From assembly GCF_900115825.1 (NCBI RefSeq), contig NZ_FOXW01000002.1, forward strand, positions 51,795 through 91,794: DNA of 40,000 nucleotides, given 5' to 3'. The position numbers and the translations under genes were made by a program. Source of the stretch: Desemzia incerta (GTDB lineage: Bacteria; Bacillota; Bacilli; Lactobacillales; Carnobacteriaceae). How positions within the stretch are numbered: the first letter of the stretch is position 1; every line of letters begins with the position of its first letter. The notes under the pieces were generated by a model. That model was not told the origin of the DNA, did not search any database, and saw only the letters and a list, made by a program, of their open reading frames with translations. Positions 2,313-14,980 of the stretch are shown here, piece after piece.

Positions 2313-2313
2313 T
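2276..2313 (+). terminator. rpsD intrinsic terminator
   Basis: Perfect 14-bp stem AAGCTTGGAAATCT / AGATTTCCAAGCTT, 5-nt loop, then T7. Confidence 0.85.
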
Positions 2314-3048
2314 ATAGAATTTTTTTAATTTTTAATAACAGTTAGAATGATTTAGGAAAATCAAAATTGATAGTCGCATTCTATTACTCGTCTGTTTTAT
2401 TCGGTTGTTTCAAACCTTTTTCGGTAACCAAAGGTGTCTTCTATATTCATTGAAATTCACGTAGTTCTTTACTACCCAATTAACGATGACAACAACCTGC
2501 CATTATTCTCATATCTATAAATCATATATGAGAGCAACATTTCTCTTAAAAAGTAACAGTGATTTTAACGCCACTTGTTTGCCGCTGAAGTATGAATGTT
2601 AAAAACTTGTTGTTTTTTAACGTTATAGTAGTTATTATAACGTTAAAAGATGTGTCACCGACGAGCGATATATTATTGCAAAAGAAAATACAAATTGAAT
2701 ACTGCAATTTTGTTAACGAAAATATGGAAGCAAAACTCAAAAGAGTCCATTACAAAATGGCTTCATCCTTTTGATTGCTGATTCAAGGGTATATTAGCTA
2801 TATGCAGTACATATAAATTGAAATAAGATAACCTGCTAAAACATTGGAAAAAACCATAGAAATAAGTTGTCAATCTATAAAAAATGCTCTAGTCACTGCA
2901 GCTAACAGTAACTAGAGCTCAACTCCTTGATATGTAGATATAAAAAGTTCAAGGCTAAAAATTTAAGTAAACAAACTGAAAACTGATGAGAACAGTTTTC
3001 AAAGATACGTTTTCCTTATATACATTATACCATATTGGAGGTTTTATT

Positions 3049-3741
3049 TTGAAAAAAATTGTTGGTGGATTATTATTATCACTTTCGGCGGTAACACTAA
3101 TGGCGTGTTCTGGTGGTTTAGATAATACAGGAAAAGAAACATCTAAGGATAGCAACGCAGCTACATCTTCTAGTGCCATTGAACCTGTAGATGAAAACTA
3201 TGTAGAGAAAGGTAAATTGTTAGAAGTTGGACAATGGACTGATGACGAAGGTTATGGCGGTAAGATTACTCTTGCTAAATTAGCTAGTCCAAAAGAAACT
3301 ATTCAAATCTTAGATGGTTTTTCTATATTAATTAATGATATCAAAATACTTGAGTATTCTGAAGTTGATCAAAATTTATTAGAATCAGACGTTTCGGATG
3401 GATTTATCCCAGAGAATTCACTAACTGAAGATGGTTTTTATACTATTCAAATTGACTACGTAGTTACTAATGATACAGATAATGCTTTAGATTTTTATGG
3501 TTTAAACTATATTGTCACTGATCAAGGACAACAAATAGACGTTATGATGGATAACTTAAACTACAGCAATACTACAACTTTCCAACCAAATACTAAAGTC
3601 GAAGATTACATAGTAGCACCAATTAACGCTGAAGCTATGAGTGATTTAAGCAAAGTCACCTTAACTACGTCAGAGTTATGGGATGAAAGTGATGGTTCTC
3701 AATTAGTTGATGAAAAATCTATAGAAGTAAACTTTAATTAA
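3049..3741 (+). CDS. Putative secreted lipoprotein (island cargo)
   Basis: A TTG start at 3049 follows SD GGAGGT and is in frame with track ORF 2986..3741. The N-terminus MKKIVGGLLLSLSAVTLMAC carries lipobox L-M-A-C. The mature part is Ser/Thr/Asp-rich and looks beta-rich. Confidence 0.8.
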   Translation: MKKIVGGLLLSLSAVTLMACSGGLDNTGKETSKDSNAATSSSAIEPVDENYVEKGKLLEVGQWTDDEGYGGKITLAKLASPKETIQILDGFSILINDIKILEYSEVDQNLLESDVSDGFIPENSLTEDGFYTIQIDYVVTNDTDNALDFYGLNYIVTDQGQQIDVMMDNLNYSNTTTFQPNTKVEDYIVAPINAEAMSDLSKVTLTTSELWDESDGSQLVDEKSIEVNFN

Positions 3742-3755
3742 TAACTTAATTACTT

Positions 3756-3804
3756 AAAAAATAAAAATGCAGCACTCTCCCCGACCAAAGGTTGAGTGCT
3801 GCAT
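3756..3804. terminator. Hairpin terminator after the lipoprotein gene, better suited to leftward (minus-strand) transcription
   Basis: Perfect 11-bp stem ATGCAGCACTC (3767-3777) / GAGTGCTGCAT (3794-3804). The plus-strand downstream tract is poor (CATTTGAG). The preceding A-run AAAAAATAAAA gives a good U-tract on the minus strand. Confidence 0.5.
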
Positions 3805-3867
3805 CATTTGAGTTAGATATTGAATAGTACACGTTAATTTTTAAGTTTTAATTCAGGTGTATTCAAA

Positions 3868-4118
3868 ATGAAATTTGGAATTCGAAAGCCTAGTATTAAG
3901 AATCAATAATCTCTAGGACAACAGGAAAAACTAAAAGAGCTATTAAAGTAGAAATAATAACAAATTCCTTCTTTCTGATTCGGAAGTGGCGAAAAAGAGG
4001 TGAACAATATTTACGAAATAATTACATCTATCCTGGTCTGTGGTTTGCTTGCAGGGTGCATAAAATTTATAACAAAATAAAAACAACCCACTCCCCTACT
4101 TTGGACGGTGAGGAGTGA
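3868..4118 (+). pseudogene. Possible frameshifted gene remnant (MKFGIRKPSIKNQ* followed by a 70-codon Met-less frame)
   Basis: The ATG at 3868 opens 13 codons ending at TAA 3907-3909. A frame offset by one nucleotide (codons starting at 3909, overlapping the last base of that TAA) stays open to TGA 4116-4118 (ISRTTGKTKRAIK...). From memory, the lysine-rich N-terminus resembles small conserved hypothetical proteins of Firmicute mobile elements. This is unverified. Confidence 0.25.
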
Positions 4119-4119
4119 G
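4073..4119 (-). terminator. Minus-strand-specific intrinsic terminator just beyond the 5' end of the 227-aa gene
   Basis: On the minus-strand RNA, CUCACUCCU pairs with GGGAGUGGG (9 bp including two G-U pairs) around a 15-nt loop, followed by UUGUUUUUAUUUU. On the plus strand the same positions give C-A mismatches and no U-tract. Confidence 0.5.
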
Positions 4120-4181
4120 ATAAATAACGCATTATGGAATATCTTTGTATTATTATACCATAAGATCGAGGTGAATTTTAA

Positions 4182-4865
4182 GTGTCCAATACTTATTTAA
4201 TTGCAAAAACAAGCAATTTTAATAGAAATTATTCAATAGACCCTAACGTACAAACAAGTCTGCTAGATGCAGATGGATTAGCTATCACAGAAGGAGATCC
4301 GGAAACTAGGATGCAACACTCTACAAATATACAAGTTGATAATAAAGATGTTGCAGTCTACACTATTCATCATGATTATAAAGTGAAAAAAACAGGAAAA
4401 GTTTTTGATAGAATATTTCATTATTACTTAGATCCAAAAGATTTTTATCTTTACTATGTTGAAGCAGAAAGTCTTTTGTTAGTCCGTGCTCAAAAAGATG
4501 TTGCAAAAGATTTTTTAAGTTACTTATCTCAAGAATTTCCTAATTTTAAATATGAAATACTGGAGCCTAATTTAAAAACTATAATGTCTAAAGTCGATGG
4601 GTTAAAAGGAGCCTGGATTTCCGTTGTAAAAGATGGCGTAAATACAGAAGCTTATTTTGGAAGCGAAGTAGAAAATGACGATGATGTTCGTGAGGGAATA
4701 GATAACGAAAAAGCCACGTATATAACCTTCATCTACTTGTTTGCAGACAAAGAAATATATTGTGGCATTTCTAAAAAAGGAAATATTACATTGTATGACG
4801 ATTCTCTAACGGATGATGAAAAACAGGTAATCATCATGCGAATATACGAGCACTTAATTAAATAA
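4182..4865 (+). CDS. Orphan hypothetical protein, 227 aa, soluble and acidic (island gene A)
   Basis: GTG start with SD GAGGTGA 7 nt upstream. The next in-frame Met is at codon 44. There is no TM segment, no P-loop, and no catalytic motif that I recognise. Confidence 0.75.
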   Translation: MSNTYLIAKTSNFNRNYSIDPNVQTSLLDADGLAITEGDPETRMQHSTNIQVDNKDVAVYTIHHDYKVKKTGKVFDRIFHYYLDPKDFYLYYVEAESLLLVRAQKDVAKDFLSYLSQEFPNFKYEILEPNLKTIMSKVDGLKGAWISVVKDGVNTEAYFGSEVENDDDVREGIDNEKATYITFIYLFADKEIYCGISKKGNITLYDDSLTDDEKQVIIMRIYEHLIK

Positions 4866-5633
4866 GTTGTTATTCGATATTGCTATATACTCTTTTGAAA
4901 TAGATTTTATTTGGGCTAAAGAAGTAGAATGAATTGAAATATTATTATTTTTTATAAATACAGTTCCTTCATCAAGCTCATACTTCATATTAAAATTCAA
5001 TTTATCAATTTTTTCAAAATTGTTTAAATATACTTTATAAAATGGATTGAAATCATCCAATTCAATTGATAACAAACATGAAACATCCGTTGGATGGATA
5101 AAGTTAGAACGAATAATTCCTTCTACTTCTGAGTACGTAGTGTATAAATCACTCAAAGAATTTCTATATGATGTTCGATATTTAGAAGATATTCTAACTT
5201 CATATTCATCAGGATTTTCTATTGATAGCACATATTGATTTTGATTTACACTGATTTCATACTTGGTTAAGTTTTTATTATAAGAATTAGGAAATTTAAA
5301 ATCCGAATATTTGCTTGACAGGTCTTTAAAAATATCTTCAGTAAGGTTTTCATTAATCTGATTAACAGAATACACCGTAGTGATTTTCCAAGAGACAGAT
5401 GGATTTGCTATATAAACAATCAGTTTTCTCCAGTTAGTGAATATCCAATTAACGTGTGAATAGCTGTAACTACATATAAAAATAAAGTACCCTATTAATT
5501 CTATAAAAGAAGTTACTCTTGAAGTGTTTGAACTTTCTTTAAATGAATTAATGTAGTTGATACTCAATACAGCGAAGGCTATCCATGCAATAATTACTAA
5601 CACAAGAGGGGTATACTTTTTTATCTTATCCAC
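4854..5633 (-). CDS. Orphan membrane protein with two N-terminal TM helices and a ~190-aa Asn/Ser/Tyr/Lys-rich C-terminal domain (island gene B)
   Basis: The track ORF runs 4854..5645, but GTG 5645 has no SD. The sequence AGGTGGTGA (5647-5639) is itself a strong SD, 5-8 nt before the in-frame GTG at 5633. TM1 is roughly YTPLVLVIIAWIAFAVLSINYI and TM2 roughly FIELIGYFIFICSYSYSHVNWIF. Positive residues flank both helices, which puts the C-terminal domain in the cytoplasm. Confidence 0.75.
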   Translation of the reverse strand: MDKIKKYTPLVLVIIAWIAFAVLSINYINSFKESSNTSRVTSFIELIGYFIFICSYSYSHVNWIFTNWRKLIVYIANPSVSWKITTVYSVNQINENLTEDIFKDLSSKYSDFKFPNSYNKNLTKYEISVNQNQYVLSIENPDEYEVRISSKYRTSYRNSLSDLYTTYSEVEGIIRSNFIHPTDVSCLLSIELDDFNPFYKVYLNNFEKIDKLNFNMKYELDEGTVFIKNNNISIHSTSLAQIKSISKEYIAISNNNLFN

Positions 5634-5655
5634 CCATATCACCACCTATATTTAC

Positions 5656-5683
5656 ATTATACACAAAAAGGAACATATGTTCT
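5656..5683 (-). promoter_or_regulatory. Extended -10 promoter of gene B overlapped by a LexA (Cheo) box
   Basis: The minus strand reads GGTAGAACATATGTTCCTTTTTGTGTATAATG. The extended -10 TGTGTATAAT is at 5665-5656. GAACATATGTTC (5682-5671) matches the Firmicute LexA consensus CGAACATATGTTCG in all 12 core positions and covers the -35 region. Confidence 0.55.
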
Positions 5684-5859
5684 ACCTTAACTATTTATTA
5701 GAGTAGAACGATTTTTAATCTACTGGCCTACGTTAAATTTTTTCTCATAGCTCTTTTTGTCGACTAATAATATCACACTTAAGGATGTGATAACAAATCC
5801 TTTCTAGATTCCCATCCGGCAATCTGTAAGGAATGAATTACGAGTACGACATTGAAACC

Positions 5860-5929
5860 AGATAATAAGAATCATTCGACGATCTTTCTTAAAAGCTTGG
5901 AAATCTTTCATAGATTTCCAAGCTTTTTT
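5860..5929. repeat. Right copy of the 70-bp perfect direct repeat (putative attR)
   Basis: Identical to 2243-2312 at all 70 positions (checked base by base). Confidence 0.95.
5893..5929 (+). terminator. Duplicated copy of the rpsD terminator hairpin
   Basis: It has the same 14-bp stem as 2276-2308, followed by T6. It would stop rightward transcription leaving the island before yueI. Confidence 0.6.
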
Positions 5930-6048
5930 GTTTCCCCTTTATTTCACACTTGTGTTTTCATTTATCTACGTCCCAGTTTTTGTTTTTAATCAGCAAAATG
6001 TGGTACTATTGGTAATGAGACGAATTATTTTTGAATGAGGTGTTATAC

Positions 6049-6495
6049 ATGGTCAATAAAGATGCCAATGATTACTTGCAAAAAGGACAATATGGTGTTA
6101 AACAAACGTTGATTTCAGAACGAAAAGAATTCATGGGCAGTTTACGAGAAAGAGTTTATTTGACTGCACGACTAGAGCAGCTTTCCCAAGAGAATGCACT
6201 TCAAGCTTTCCAAGATGAATTTCAAAAACATCCAGATGGCCATTTGCTGTTGAATGGTACATTTGGTATGAGTTTCTTTGACGGCTATATCAAAGAAAGT
6301 AAACATATGGGGATTCCATTCACTCTAATAGCCAATGAATATGCACAAACCACCCCTTATGCAATCATTTATACTGCTTCGACTGCTGTAGATGAACCCA
6401 TTATTGACCTTGCCGAGAAATACCCTCTTCCTCTAAAGAGTGAGCCTCAACAAAAAAGTCAGAAAAAGTCATTCTTTAAACGCTTTTTCTCCTAA
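6049..6495 (+). CDS. YueI-like protein (DUF1694 family)
   Basis: ATG 6049 follows SD GAGGTG; the track ORF starts 18 nt earlier at a TTG. The N-terminal pattern DYLQKGQYG...ERKEFMGSLRERV is typical of YueI/DUF1694 proteins. Confidence 0.7.
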   Translation: MVNKDANDYLQKGQYGVKQTLISERKEFMGSLRERVYLTARLEQLSQENALQAFQDEFQKHPDGHLLLNGTFGMSFFDGYIKESKHMGIPFTLIANEYAQTTPYAIIYTASTAVDEPIIDLAEKYPLPLKSEPQQKSQKKSFFKRFFS

Positions 6496-9547: not shown

Positions 9548-10774
9548 ATGGTCGATACAAACAAAGAATCATTTAATACCCAAGAAAACGAAACGCCATC
9601 AACGGTCAAAGACGTAAACGTTGAATTAGAGAGTTTATTAGCTAATCCATTCCAAACACCTGCAGCTCCTGTAGCTGCAGATCCTTCTATTGAGAATGAT
9701 GTACAAAAAGAAACAAAGACTGAACGCTTGGTCGATAAACTGCCTAAAGAAAGACAACAGCAAGCTTATGCATTAGCCGGTCAAATCGACGAAAGCAATA
9801 TTGAATCGGTCATGTCTTATGGTGCAGCTGCGCAAAAAAAACTAGGGGAATTTTCTCATTCCATGCTGGATCATGTCCAAAATCAAGATACTGGAGATAT
9901 TGGAGAAACCTTGAATGAATTGATGTATCGTTTGAATGAAGCTAACCCAGATGATTTAAGAGCTGAAGACAACAATATTTTCAAAAAACTTTTTGGGAAG
10001 ATCAATCGCTCGATATATGAAGTAACCGCTAAATACCAAAAAATCGGTGCTCAAGTCGATAAAATCGCTGGTAAGTTAAACAAAGAAAAAGATTTGCTGT
10101 TGCGAGATAACGCTATGTTGGAACAATTGTACACAAAAAACTTAGACTATTTTGAAGCGTTGAATATCTACATTGCTGCCGGTGAAGTAAAAGCAGAAGA
10201 ACTTTTAACTAAGTTGATTCCTGAAGCTGTAGCAAAAGCAGAAAACAGTTCTGATCAAATGGATGTTCAACATGTAAATGATTTGAATCAATTTCTTGAT
10301 CGTCTTGAAAAACGAGTGTACGACTTGAAGTTAGCTCGTCAAATGACGATCCAACAAGCTCCGCAAATCCGTTTGATTCAAAATACAAACCAAGCATTGT
10401 CTGAAAAAATTCAATCTTCTATCAATACCGCTATTCCTTTATGGAAAAACCAAATTGTTATTGCATTGACCCTATTGAGACAAAAAGATGCTGTTGAAGC
10501 ACAACGCCAAGTATCTGAAACCACTAATGACTTATTAAAGAAAAACTCTGAACTATTGAAAACTTCTGCTATTGAAACAGCTAGAGAAAATGAACGAGGT
10601 ATTATTGACTTAGAAACCTTGCAAAAAACTCAAACTGACCTGATCGATACGCTGCAACAAACTTTGGAAATCCAAAAAGAAGGCCGTATCAAACGTAAAG
10701 AAGCAGAACGTGAGTTAACCACTATGGAGACTACTCTGCGCGATCAATTACTAGAAATCACAAGTAAAGATTAA
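9548..10774 (+). CDS. Toxic anion resistance protein (TelA/YaaN family)
   Basis: 408-aa all-helical protein. It has the TelA-type conserved stretch ...[22 protein letters not shown]...LNELM.... SD AGGAG. Confidence 0.85.
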
Positions 10775-10813
10775 TTTTTTTCTTCCCCTTTCCATGTGAT
10801 GTGAGCATATCCT

Positions 10814-10842
10814 TTGAACTTTGAACAATTAGTGTCTATACT
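10814..10842 (+). promoter_or_regulatory. Putative sigma-A promoter of the GlsB-like gene
   Basis: TTGAAC (10814-10819), 17-nt spacer, TATACT (10837-10842). Confidence 0.5.
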
Positions 10843-10895
10843 AGGTATTGTAATAGTTCATTACAAATACTTTATTTCTTAGGAGAGTGGAACTT

Positions 10896-11144
10896 ATGTC
10901 ATTTATTTGGTCATTAATCGTTGGTGGTATTTTAGGAGCCGTTGCTGGGATGATCGTTGGACGCGACGTACCGTTTGGTATCGTTGGTAACATCATTGCT
11001 GGATTTATCGGATCTTGGTTAGGTACATCATTATTAGGACAATGGGGTTTGAATATCGGAGGATTTTACATCTTCCCAGCGCTGATTGGTGCTATCGTTC
11101 TAATATTAATCTTCTCTTTCATTACTGGAAGACGCAAAGGGTAA
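10896..11144 (+). CDS. GlsB/YeaQ/YmgE family stress-response membrane protein
   Basis: ATG 10896 lies 9 nt after SD AGGAGA. Glycine-zipper TM repeats (IVGGILGAVAGMIVG...IAGFIGSWLG). Confidence 0.85.
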   Translation: MSFIWSLIVGGILGAVAGMIVGRDVPFGIVGNIIAGFIGSWLGTSLLGQWGLNIGGFYIFPALIGAIVLILIFSFITGRRKG

Positions 11145-11165
11145 TTGTTCCCTAATAAAATAAAA

Positions 11166-11196
11166 AAGATATACTCTTCGGAGTATATCTTTTTTA
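11166..11196 (+). terminator. Intrinsic terminator of the GlsB-like gene
   Basis: 11-bp stem AAGATATACTC/GAGTATATCTT, TTCG loop, T-run. Confidence 0.8.
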
Positions 11197-11211
11197 TTTT
11201 AATGTAAAACG

Positions 11212-11245
11212 ATAAAAAGAATGGAAACTATGAAGTCTCCATTCT
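11212..11245 (-). terminator. Intrinsic terminator of csp
   Basis: Minus-strand hairpin AGAATGGAGAC/GTTTCCATTCT (one mismatch), followed by TTTTTA. Confidence 0.6.
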
Positions 11246-11259
11246 TTTTGATTTTTTAA

Positions 11260-11460
11260 TTATAATTTAACAACGTTAGCTGCTTGAGGTCCACGGTTGC
11301 CTTCAACAATTTCAAATTCTACCGCTTGTCCTTCTTCTAAAGTTTTAAAACCATCGCCAGTGATTGCGCTGAAATGTACGAATACATCGTCTCCGCCTTC
11401 AACTTCGATAAATCCAAAACCTTTCTCAGCGTTAAACCATTTTACAGTTCCTTTTTCCAT
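11260..11460 (-). CDS. Cold-shock protein (CspA family)
   Basis: 66 aa, [19 protein letters not shown]...VFVHFSAI, carrying the RNP1/RNP2 motifs. Confidence 0.97.
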
Positions 11461-11636
11461 AACTAACTACCTCCACTATATCTTATTGCAACAGATCTTT
11501 TTTCTATAGAGGTCTATTTATGTAACTCAACGATCAAAGTGCATTTATACAAATATAAACGTCGTTCTTGATTAGTTATTGATGTGACATAAAATCAACT
11601 TTCTCATTTTTAAAAACAAAATCTATTACATTTTCA

Positions 11637-11665
11637 ATTATAACGCAGTTGTTTTTTATTTGCAA
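11637..11665 (-). promoter_or_regulatory. csp promoter (gives a 5'UTR of about 170 nt)
   Basis: The minus strand reads TTGCAA, a 17-nt spacer, then TATAAT (-35 at 11665-11660, -10 at 11642-11637). Long 5'UTRs are typical of cold-shock mRNAs. Confidence 0.6.
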
Positions 11666-11805
11666 GGGCTATCATCTGCATTTTAACAGCGAACAACAGC
11701 TTTTTATTGATTATGAGTTTTCAACTACTTTGGAAACGTTCTATCAAAATAGTTCTCATTCACCACCTACCTCAAATTAATTGCCCTCTTTTCACTTTCG
11801 TACTC

Positions 11806-11850
11806 AATAAAAAAGCTCCATCAAACAGATTGAACTGTTTAATGGAGCTT
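11806..11850 (-). terminator. ileS intrinsic terminator
   Basis: Composite hairpin AGCTCCAT..AAACAG-TTCAAT-CTGTTT..ATGGAGCT, followed by a U-tract on the minus strand. Confidence 0.8.
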
Positions 11851-11856
11851 ACTGGT

Positions 11857-14649
11857 CTATTCTGCTTCTGTTTCAGGTATTAACGCTTCTGGATAGTGTT
11901 CCTTCACGATATGGTAGCAACGACCACAAAGTGTTGGAGCCTCCTCAAATGATCCCACTTCTTCACTGACGATGCGGCATCTTTCACACGTCTCTCCGTG
12001 TGCATGTTCAATAGAAACAGCTACATCTGCAAATTTATGAGCTGATTCAGGTGCTGACTCGTAATCACCAGCAATTTCTAAATCAGAAACGATCAATAAT
12101 TGCCCAATATTTGCGTCTAAACTATTCAACAACTCTTTTACTTCTGCTGTTGGGTAAAGAGTTACTTTTGCTTCAAATGACTTACCAATGATTTTTTCAT
12201 TACGTGCTTCTTCCAAAGCTTTCAATACTTCATCTCGCACATTCATGAATGCTTTCCAATCTTTTAACACTTCTTCTTGATTGTTGAAACGTTCTACTTC
12301 AGGTAATTCTGCCAATTGAGCAAATTCTTCGTCTTCTTTAAGGAGTTTCCAAATCTCTTCACTAGTATGCGGAAGGATTGGTGTCAATAATTTTGTCATC
12401 TTCACTAAGATATCGTAAAAGACTGTTTGCATAGCACGACGATCGTGTCCATCTTCTAAGTCGATGTAAACAATATCTTTAGCAATATCTAAATAGAATT
12501 GAGACAAATCAACTGTACAGAAGTTCATTACTGTTTGGTAAATCCCCTTGAAATCATACGTTTCATAAGAATGTTTGATTTTTTCTACGATTTGGTTGAA
12601 ACGAATCAACATATATTGGTCTAAAGCATTCAACTCTTCGTAAGCAACGGCATTGACTGCAGGATCAAAATCAGATGTATTAGCCATTAAGAAACGCATC
12701 GTGTTACGTATTTTACGGTAACCTTCAGATACTTGTTTCAAAATATCATCTGAGACGCGCACATCGTATTCGTAATCAACGCTTGAAACCCACAAACGAA
12801 TAATATCTGCACCCATTTGTTTGATTACTTTATTTGGAACAATAACATTTCCGATAGACTTACTCATCTTACGGCCTTCTCCATCCATTACGAAACCTTG
12901 AGAAAGGACGCTTCTGTAAGGAGCTTCTTCGTTAACCGCCACAGAGGTTGTCAAACTAGAGTTAAACCAGCCTCGGTATTGATCTGAGCCTTCTAGATAC
13001 ATGTCTGCTGGGAATGATAACTCTGGACGAGTTTTCAATACACCTGCATGAGATGATCCTGAGTCAAACCATACATCCATGATATCTGTTTCTTTAGTAA
13101 ATTCATTATTTGGACTAGCTGGATGCGTAAAGCCTTCTGGTAATAAATCTTTTGCTTCCCGTTCAAACCACACATTCGATCCATGCTCACTCACTAATGA
13201 AGCCACATGATCAATGGTTTCTGGAGTAATAATCGGTTCGCCATTTTCAGCATAGAAAATCGGCAGAGGCACGCCCCATACACGTTGACGTGAAATAACC
13301 CAATCACCGCGGTCTCGAACCATATTGTACAATCTTGGTTTTCCTGATGGATGCAACCACGTTACATCATTTTCAATAGCATCTAAAATTTGTTGACGGA
13401 ATTTATCGATTGAAGCAAACCATTGAGGTGTTGCTCTAAAAATAACTGGTTTTTTTGTTCTCCAGTCATGAGGGTAGCTATGTGTAAAGAAGCTCATTTT
13501 CAACAAGTTTCCTTTTTCTTCAAGCCATTCCGTAATTTGTTTGTTGGCAGTATCATAGAAAACACCTTCTAAGCCTGGTGCTTCATCAGTGAAACATCCT
13601 TTATCATCAATAGGAGAAAGAACACCTAGTTTGTATTTTTGACCTGCAATATAGTCATCTTCCCCGTGTCCAGGAGCCGTGTGAACTAAACCAGTACCGG
13701 CTTCTAGTGTAACGTGATCTCCCACAATTACTAGAGATGTACGATCATACAATGGATGTTGTGCTGTCATCAATTCTAAGTCTTTTCCGTTCACTTCAGA
13801 TACGGTTTCAACATTTTCCCAACCTAATGTGGCTGCTACATCGTTTACTAAGTCTTTAGCCAATACATATTTTTTGCCATCAACTTCAACTACAGAGTAC
13901 ACATAATCTGCATTCACAGCGATAGCTAAGTTTGCTGGAATCGTCCATGGTGTAGTTGTCCAGATCACGAATGATGTGTCACCATTTAAAATTCCTTTTC
14001 CGTCAACAACTGGGAAAGAAACATAGATACTTGGTGATTTAACATCTTGGTATTCAATTTCAGCTTCAGCTAATGAAGATTCACTAGATGGTGACCAGTA
14101 AATAGGTTTCAAACCTTTATAGATGTATCCTTTTTCCGCCATCTGTCCGAATAAACGAATTTGTTGTTCTTCAAATTTAGGATCTAGAGTCACATAAGGA
14201 TTGTCCCAATCACCAGCTACTCCAAGACGTTTAAAATCTTCTCTTTGTTGGTTGATTTGTTTCCAAGCATACTCCTCACAAATCTTGCGGAATTCTGCTT
14301 CCGACATTTCTTTCCGTTTCACACCGCTGTTTGTGACAGCTTGTTCAATAGGCAGTCCATGTGTATCCCATCCAGGAACGTAAGGAGAACGGAAACCGCT
14401 CATGCTTTTTGATCGGATGATAATATCTTTTGTAATTTTGTTTAAAGCGTGACCCATATGGATATCGCCGTTTGCATATGGAGGTCCATCATGCAAGATA
14501 AAAGTTGGTTTATCTGAGTTTTTTTCTTGACGTTTTTCATATACACCAGCATCTTTCCACTCTTGTTGCCATTCCACTTCTCGTACTGGCAAGTTTCCTC
14601 GCATTTTGAATTTAGTATTTCCTAAATTCAATGTTTCTTTCATTTTCAT
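11857..14649 (-). CDS. ileS: Isoleucine--tRNA ligase
   Basis: Start [21 protein letters not shown] at 14649 after SD AGAGGGG. HIGH (HMGH) and KMSKS motifs are present, with a C-terminal Zn-finger CERCR...CGRC. The 41-codon upstream extension in the track ORF runs through the T-box leader. Confidence 0.98.
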
Positions 14650-14720
14650 TGTAAGAATTCCCCTCTTCTTTGTTTTTCCTTGTTTCCTTTGATCAACACC
14701 ATTGCCTAACTTTTGGAGCA

Positions 14721-14962
14721 TAAAAAAAAGACCTCCTCCCAAAAGGGACGAAATCTTCGTGGTACCACCCATAGTTCAAGAAAAGAGTTCCCTCTTTTCT
14801 CCTCTAGTAATTGTTAACGCCAATCACACGATTGATTCTACTCCTAGTTCGAATCAATACTCATGGAGGATCTTACGACAGCAGGGACTTGTTAGACTTA
14901 CACTATCTCTAACTCGCTGAAAAGTATACTTACTGTCGCTTTCTGTTCCAATCTTCGCTATT
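14721..14962 (-). promoter_or_regulatory. T-box riboswitch leader of ileS (Ile specifier AUC)
   Basis: The minus strand reads AACTATGGGTGGTACCACGAAGATTTCGTCCCTTTTGGGAGGAGGTCTTTTTTTT. It holds the conserved T-box motif and an alternative terminator helix GATTTCGTCCC/GGGAGGAGGTC followed by U8. Stem I elements AGCGAAGA and AGAGATAGTG lie upstream. AUC at 14871-14869 sits in an internal loop between helices CGACAG/CUGUCG and UGGA/UCCA. Confidence 0.85.
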
Positions 14963-14980
14963 CATTATTCAAATGGTTGA

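Follow-up and report, generated by a model that had tools for sequence, protein, structure and literature searches.

We have analysed two adjacent genes, here called A and B, in a 40,000-nucleotide stretch of the Desemzia incerta genome (the window; contig NZ_FOXW01000002.1). Our proposal, to which we give a probability of roughly 0.4, is that this pair is a Rex-like exclusion module borne by prophages, in which the membrane protein B is gated by the SOS response. This reading draws on the strict pairing of the two genes, on their position between a cI-like repressor and an integrase, which resembles the cI-rexA-rexB order of phage lambda, on the moron-like shuffling of the pair between elements and on its survival outside prophages. 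It also draws on a model of A that matches RdgC and Iml3, which are published relatives of RexA (PMC11077077), and on a conserved layout of LexA box and terminators. The genes are as follows.

4182-4865, plus strand: gene A, 227 amino acids with a GTG start; a soluble, acidic protein of predicted RdgC/Iml3-like fold, from an unannotated family
4854-5633 (259 amino acids, from the GTG at 5633) or 4854-5645 (263 amino acids), minus strand: gene B, a membrane hairpin followed by a cytoplasmic domain
4854-4865: overlap of the 3′ ends of A and B, 12 bp; the genes are convergent and have no terminator between them

The original prediction had described two convergent open reading frames (ORFs) here, and these are confirmed. 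For B, the GTG at 5633 is the likelier start over that at 5645, as it is favoured by a ribosome-binding site (GGTGGTG) before it and by agreement with the N-termini of homologues. The GC content across the pair is 0.26-0.31, against 0.35-0.42 in the flanks. Judged by the pairwise ratio of nonsynonymous to synonymous substitution rates (dN/dS), A and B are both genuine genes under purifying selection, because this ratio is low across five loci (0.08-0.15 for A and 0.17-0.28 for B), with dS saturated. Neither protein matches a model in Pfam, NCBIfam or PADLOC, and the proposed check for a known defence family in PADLOC and Pfam came back empty for both. Profile and single-protein searches (Pfam, NCBIfam, PADLOC, PDB sequences) gave noise only, e.g. 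eIF4A, tissue factor and HPr. No description of this pair was found in the literature searched. The idea that A and B are paralogues of each other is ruled out by an hhalign probability of 0.2%.

An adjacent B homologue accompanies the A gene in every one of the 27 loci examined. These are the loci where the DNA around an A gene was retrievable; 23 were scored by profile hidden Markov models (HMMs) and four distant loci were added, with B matches of E 1e-20 to 1e-38. The question raised at the outset, whether homologues of the two genes co-occur, can thus be answered in the affirmative, the contexts being prophages, a satellite and the neighbourhood of defence genes (loci L001 and L027). The pairs are convergent in 26 of the 27 loci. 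In the remaining one, L029, they are co-directional (A then B), so the description of the pair as convergent rather than operonic stands for all loci except this one, and the association of A with B is independent of the convergent layout. The 12-bp overlap is kept in all five close loci, and the overlap of 3′ ends measures 4-24 bp in the distant convergent loci, with the exceptions of L005 (a 3-nt gap) and L030 (a 43-nt gap). The distant pairs are only about 20-30% identical to that of the window, with hhalign probabilities of 93-98%, and the pairing holds for family members as low as about 20-25% identity. On this comparative evidence a chance neighbourhood of A and B is effectively excluded, and the view that they are one functional unit is supported.

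The usual gene order is cI-like repressor, A, B and integrase, with A on the strand of the repressor; in some loci the repressor and the pair are separated by an ImmA protease or a surface protein. This order is seen in L005, L006, L007, L028, L029 and L030, of which L028 has no called repressor. The carriers are the Streptococcus phage Javan59 (L006), the satellite Javan743 (L007), a Pediococcus phage-plasmid (L005) and metagenomic prophages. The Pediococcus ‘plasmid’ is in fact a phage and has genes for holin, lysin, Rha and XRE. Overall, the pair belongs to temperate phages and satellites of lactic-acid bacteria. Among the Streptococcus loci the cassette is about 95% identical and the neighbouring integrases are 23-53% identical. 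Since it is near-identical beside divergent integrases, in a phage as well as in a satellite, the cassette can be regarded as an exchangeable moron. Outside prophages, the pair occurs in L001 and L027, both near defence genes, and in the integrase-less island of Desemzia. A SIR2-HerA defence system (10052-13153, minus strand; E 7e-56 and 1e-161) lies 1.4 kb from A and B in L001, and the PADLOC candidate PDC-S51 (3708-4634, minus strand; E 3e-92) lies beside them in L027.

Some further details of these loci may be of use. The same cassette (4989-6443; B 88% identical) is shared by Javan59 (42.7 kb, S. anginosus) and Javan743 (16 kb, pneumococcal), whose integrases are about 25% identical, and the satellite Javan743 has a DinD-like gene between B and the integrase. 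The neighbours of the pair in L001 also include an HNH (PtuB-like) gene, DUF2321, a Peptidase_S24 protein, an IstB fragment and an integrase fragment.

Proteins A and B

The genes had been introduced as orphans, a label that does not hold for the pair. Searching with an A profile in HMMER gives a family of 141 clusters (50% identity level) at E ≤1e-3, nearly all of 220-240 amino acids. Close homologues are rare, with five A and four or five B sequences in 5.8 billion clusters. The phage family phrog_18260 is matched by 30 of 63 A-family members. Searching phage genomes by tblastn with the window proteins gave no match, and distant family members were needed as queries; the protein P0020, used as a query, also had no match in phage genomes. 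In IMG/VR there were no relatives, either with the close A profile or with three distant A proteins.

As first described, A is acidic, with an isoelectric point (pI) of 4.86, and motif-less by Pfam, NCBIfam and PADLOC. Its net charge is -12, and the median pI of the family is about 6. The conserved residues are mostly glycine and aromatic, a pattern suggestive of a scaffold and not of an enzyme. For A, AlphaFold gives a model with a mean predicted local distance difference test score (pLDDT) of 76.5 and a predicted template-modelling score (pTM) of 0.75. Foldseek searches of the PDB match this model to E. coli RdgC (2owl; E 2e-6, probability 1.0, template-modelling (TM) score 0.49) and to yeast Iml3 (4it3; probability 0.99), and the phage RdgC-like proteins in BFVD are matched with TM scores of 0.45-0.53. 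The structural comparison that had been recommended for both proteins was therefore informative for A, with its matches to RdgC and Iml3, and for B gave TM scores of at most 0.33. None of the 63 A-family members matches the RdgC profile PF04381 at E ≤0.1. As far as the model goes, any likeness of A to RdgC and RexA is confined to the level of the fold.

The N-terminus of B is rich in lysine and arginine and is followed, by hydropathy, by one strongly and one moderately hydrophobic helix. The C-terminal domain of about 180 amino acids is rich in N, S, I, K and Y. The architecture first assigned to B, two N-terminal helices and a cytoplasmic domain, is upheld with two amendments, namely that one helix is only moderately hydrophobic and that the domain has about 180 rather than 190 residues. 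The AlphaFold model (pLDDT 75.5, pTM 0.62) consists of a helical hairpin, an amphipathic helix and an alpha/beta domain, with the hairpin predicted N-in. Across 14 homologues (alignment A8) the motifs SYR and NPFY are kept, and Y156, P197, Y249 and S253 are invariant; a Pfam search of these 14 homologues gave no match. The best holin match of B, phrog_2073, is not significant (E 0.51).

Regulatory signals around B

The signals that bear on the expression of the pair, in the window and in the homologous loci, are listed here.

5671-5682: LexA/Cheo-type box GAACATATGTTC, overlapping the -35 and the spacer of the predicted B promoter
5656-5661, minus strand: predicted -10 (TATAAT) of the B promoter, read from the sequence; it aligns with a TATAAT in L001 and L002
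3769-3802, minus strand: hairpin followed by a U-run, -24.7 kcal/mol, z -6.0; homologous to a hairpin upstream of the B promoter in L001, L002 and L004
4087-4119, with its U-run at 4086-4070, minus strand: intrinsic terminator on the B strand, -16 kcal/mol, z -2.6; it lies beyond A and the A promoter
Hairpin family copies: window 3769-3802 and 4087-4119; L001 7100-7125 and 8729-8758; L002 1578-1609; L004 1588-1620
Similar hairpins in distant loci, between B and the integrase: L005 7489-7525 (Pediococcus) and L006 6490-6520 (Streptococcus)

The box GAACATATGTTC is the sole GAAC-N4-GTTC site within the window. The promoter that it overlaps is missed by a simple consensus scan owing to its poor -35. 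In L001, L002 and L004, too, a LexA box precedes B by 18-47 bp, and the box is also present in L025 and L026, which have the same island as the window. In total, four of five distinct elements of the Desemzia clade have a LexA box at the B promoter, so that in this clade a Cheo box (GAAC-N4-GTTC) within the promoter, the hallmark of the LexA regulon, is found. The half-sites are kept despite the divergence of the surrounding sequence, and in L004 the box is on the other side of the -10. The fifth element, L003, has no box near B. It does carry a 33-bp palindrome with perfect arms, GAACATATTTATTAGACTAGAATAAATATGTTC (2068-2100), and a separate Cheo box, CGAACATTCGTTCC (2283-2296), both 320-540 bp upstream of B.

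The terminator at 4087-4119 has an equivalent upstream of A in L001 (7100-7125), and the DNA homology between the window and L001 has its left edge at 4074. This terminator is likely to be the 3′ end of the B transcript. As it lies only beyond A, the B transcript is expected to cover all of A, together with the A promoter, in antisense. The hairpin at 3769-3802 matches L002 (1561-1609) and L004 (1545-1608) at the DNA level. Hairpins with U-runs are found on the B strand just upstream of the B promoter in the homologous loci, and by this prediction the B promoter is insulated from upstream read-through. The hairpin family has the core CTTTGG(T/A)CGG(G/T)GAG(A/G)GTG and flanks the A/B cassette in opposite orientations; it has no Rfam match.

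The island at the rpsD 3′ end

The cassette of the window sits in an island that was first described as a horizontally acquired, AT-rich cassette, and this description is borne out by the drop in GC, by att-like repeats, by an empty site (L031) and by the prophages and satellite that carry the pair elsewhere.

2243-2312: left direct repeat, att-like, perfect over 70 bp (100% identity); contains the last codon of rpsD, its stop and a terminator hairpin
5860-5929: right direct repeat, att-like, 70 bp; includes a copy of the rpsD terminator
2313-5859: inserted AT-rich island by GC profile, with a lipoprotein gene and the A/B cassette and no integrase
3050-3741, plus strand: lipoprotein gene with signal peptide and lipobox LMAC; the mechanical ORF call begins at 2986

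The repeats bracket a segment of about 3.5 kb (3.6 kb as a whole insertion). The metagenomic contig L031 has a single copy of the repeat (289-358) with nothing inserted, and its flanks are 99.5-99.7% identical to the window on both sides. Because L031 has one repeat copy without intervening DNA, the island is a precise site-specific insertion. No integrase or integrase remnant was found in it by tblastn, and it resembles an integrative element, either cis-mobilisable or decayed, with the 3′ end of rpsD as its target. A search with the close A profile found no close A homologue among the GTDB species representatives, which makes the island a variable accessory element. Neither an Rfam family nor a tRNA or tmRNA accounts for the insertion site or for the conserved hairpins. 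The 3607-bp contig L026 was considered as an excised circle and rejected; it consists of the island with 30 bp from each repeat and results from an assembly break.

A and B had been called the main cargo of the island, and they are indeed present; the island also carries the lipoprotein gene (3050-3741). Its product matches the phage family phrog_3727 (E 4e-20) and has no Pfam match, and it is a candidate Ltp-like superinfection-exclusion moron. The same slot upstream of A holds DUF5067 or other membrane proteins in L005, L028, L030 and Javan59. A 26-codon ORF, VNNIYEIITSILVCGLLAGCIKFITK (4000-4080, plus strand), with a good ribosome-binding site and a lipobox-like LLAGC, lies between the two hairpins upstream of A and may be a piece of a gene or may encode a tiny lipopeptide. 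Elsewhere in the window a T-box leader (Rfam RF00230, 100 bits; 14741-14964, minus strand) precedes a 971-codon ORF (11857-14772), a case of ordinary housekeeping control that has no bearing on A/B.

A proposed exclusion module, its relatives and its rivals

In the RexAB exclusion system of lambda, RexA is the soluble partner, which binds DNA non-specifically, and the system is encoded next to cI; the paper on its crystal structure lists RdgC and IML3/CHL4 as its structural relatives (PMC11077077). Rex-type pairs have also been described as Sbash gp30/31, in CarolAnn and Butters and as P. putida PP_5643/5644 (PMC11077077, PMC12894663). The A/B pair resembles lambda RexA/RexB in that a soluble protein of predicted RdgC/IML3-type fold is combined with a membrane protein in the immunity region, on or beside the repressor unit, and it shares with the Rex-type systems a separately controlled membrane component (PMC11077077, PMC12894663). 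Thus the claim that the system is undescribed remains true of Pfam, NCBIfam and PADLOC, to which the pair is unknown, and has to be tempered by the existence of a described analogue in lambda. While the pair lies in the immunity region beside a repressor, as a Rex-type system does, it does not carry the sequence signatures of RexA, RexB, RdgC or Kiwa.

There are several differences from the known systems. A/B is usually convergent and overlapping, its hosts are Bacillota and in one clade B is LexA-controlled, whereas the Rex genes are co-transcribed. At 227 amino acids, A is shorter than lambda RexA (279) and the actinophage homologues (337-372), and it fits RdgC better than the RexA crystal structure. 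RdgC supplies the best fold matches of A. However, RdgC (PF04381) is a stand-alone housekeeping or phage recombination factor without a membrane partner, and A is about 75 residues shorter. RdgC itself is a ring dimer that binds dsDNA, with subunits of about 300 amino acids. KwaA has four transmembrane helices and the Kiwa genes are co-directional. Kiwa is a defence system that combines this membrane protein with the soluble, DNA-associated KwaB (DUF4868), a likeness to A/B (PMC11785009), but no DUF4868 or Kiwa model matches in Pfam or PADLOC, and no Kiwa structure is among the top PDB fold matches. Finally, Ltp, Sie2009 and the prophage Abi genes of lactic-acid-bacteria phages occupy the same slot between integrase and repressor, and the lipoprotein gene adjacent to A/B resembles an Ltp-type arrangement (PMC11514479). 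Morons of the Ltp/Sie2009 type are single surface proteins that block DNA injection; A/B differs in having a cytoplasmic component of predicted RdgC fold, and it has no match in PADLOC, any Abi models in that library included.

A Rex-like module could operate as follows. A, a cytoplasmic protein with a predicted RdgC-type DNA-clamp fold, would be made from the lysogenic strand alongside the repressor. What it senses or binds would be DNA that is foreign or damaged, or else a nucleoprotein complex. B, as its obligate membrane-anchored partner, would act with A at the membrane to halt either the cell or the infection. The outcome would be phage exclusion or abortive infection to the benefit of the lysogen; a Rex-type system shuts out superinfecting phages and brings about a loss of membrane potential. 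In the Desemzia clade, LexA would occupy the B promoter until DNA damage, or activation of RecA induced by infection, frees B, and the B transcript, running antisense through A and the A promoter, would shift the A:B ratio. In the classical literature on lambda Rex, it is the ratio of RexA to RexB that decides between firing and silencing. The DNA binding of A, the interaction of A with B, the effect of B on the membrane, the binding of LexA, the antisense control and the anti-phage phenotype are steps that we infer.

A number of observations weigh against this proposal. Neither A nor any of the 63 A-family members matches the RexA profile PF15969 (the lambda control scores E 1e-97), the hhalign probability of the A family against lambda RexA is 0.04%, and the RexA crystal structure is missing from the top 50 Foldseek matches of A in the PDB. 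The RexB profile PF15968 matches neither B nor 14 B homologues; RexB has 144 amino acids with four transmembrane helices and no soluble domain, whereas B has two helices and a 180-residue cytoplasmic domain. The fold matches of B (AdoMetDC, ACT domains, CYTH and CENP-N) all have TM scores of 0.33 or less, and we do not take any of them as an assignment. In PADLOC-DB 2.0, A, B, the 63 A-family members and four distant B homologues have no significant match. DNA binding by A is not obvious, given its acidic pI of 4.86, and the convergent layout is not universal, as L029 illustrates. The primary role of RexA itself may be in tuning the lysogeny switch, not in defence. Lastly, the SOS wiring first claimed for the pair stands in the Desemzia clade, with its conserved LexA box at the B promoter, and falls in the distant loci (Streptococcus, Pediococcus and others), where no LexA box was found; the regulatory model is, from this distribution, not general. 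Streptococci are not known to have a classical LexA, and a missing box is to be expected in the streptococcal loci because of this.

A more specific form of the proposal is that A and the cytoplasmic domain of B together make a membrane-tethered clamp, similar to RdgC or to IML3-CHL4, which would capture incoming or damaged DNA and trigger a membrane arrest mediated by B. It is prompted by a hint from the fold searches, where CENP-N is among the weak matches of B and Iml3 among those of A; CENP-N is, we presume, the counterpart of Chl4 and the partner of Iml3/CENP-L. We consider this clamp rather unlikely. If true, Gram-positive prophages and satellites would carry a family of abortive-infection systems, so far unrecognised, that sense DNA and are anchored in the membrane. 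The convergent, overlapping transcription would oppose the two clamp subunits to each other, and in one clade the cleavage of LexA would arm them directly.

The main rival to a Rex-like exclusion module is an accessory of the switch between lysogeny and lysis, an explanation that is possible although we lean away from it. Here A would tune the RecA- or repressor-dependent induction of the prophage. Once induced by the SOS response, B would eliminate A or oppose it, through sequestration at the membrane and through antisense transcription, and so commit the prophage to induction. Such a role would suit the RdgC-like fold of A, as E. coli RdgC damps RecA activities including LexA cleavage, and RexA biases the bistable switch of lambda (PMC11077077). 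It would also suit the location of A, on the strand of the repressor and directly downstream of the repressor or ImmA, and the LexA box of B would then be the induction signal. Yet the pair is intact and under purifying selection where there is no prophage to induce (the Desemzia island, L001 and L027), it is carried by a satellite too, and the LexA box is clade-specific.

Could B instead be a membrane toxin, held off by LexA and by A (the latter as a protein antidote or by way of convergent transcription), in a toxin-antitoxin-like addiction module or a system of SOS-triggered dormancy? It would then stabilise the element or arrest damaged cells. LexA-controlled membrane toxins are an established class, with tisB and dinQ in E. 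coli as examples, and they offer a precedent. A B promoter that is predicted to be both insulated by an upstream terminator and LexA-repressed suggests tight control of a harmful product, and each of the two transcription units is antisense to the other, with no terminator to separate them. On the other hand, B has 259 amino acids and a conserved globular domain, unlike the small SOS membrane toxins, and no toxin-antitoxin family matches in Pfam or PADLOC. The co-directional L029 and the loci without a box further indicate that such a regulatory logic is no inherent property of A/B, and we find a toxin of this kind improbable.

Still less probable, in our opinion, is an SOS-induced membrane factor with A as its cytoplasmic regulator, where B would inhibit division in the manner of YneA or SosA or would act in holin or lysis timing. 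The LexA box, the N-terminal membrane hairpin and the very weak match to phrog_2073 (E 0.51) are compatible with it. That holin match is not significant, however, and the prophage L005 has its holin and lysin as separate genes at the opposite end. The known SOS division inhibitors of Gram-positive bacteria are small, cross the membrane once and have extracellular domains, unlike B, whose large domain is predicted to be cytoplasmic, and the strict pairing with a protein of RdgC-like fold would be left unexplained. That A and B are unrelated morons, which share a known accessory hotspot between integrase and repressor (e.g. Ltp of TP-J34; PMC11514479), have separate promoters and form no two-gene system at all, is scarcely credible given an adjacency of 27/27 at 20-30% identity, next to unrelated integrases and also outside prophages, with conserved overlapping 3′ ends.

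Returning to the Rex-like exclusion module, A/B is one of many uncharacterised candidate defence pairs, yet it is well-defined and widely mobile. Annotation and defence-finder tools miss it because its membrane component is unrelated to that of Rex and sequence similarity to Rex is absent. Should A/B prove to be a defence or exclusion module, the reach of Rex-type logic, by which the immunity region encodes a soluble sensor of RdgC fold and a membrane partner, would widen from lambda and the actinophages to streptococcal, pediococcal and carnobacterial prophages and satellites. The Desemzia clade, with a LexA gate and a full-length antisense transcript, would be a compact example of DNA damage switching the ratio of two partners. 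The pair may also provide an entry to the question of whether Rex-like systems serve chiefly in defence or in modulating the lysogeny switch.

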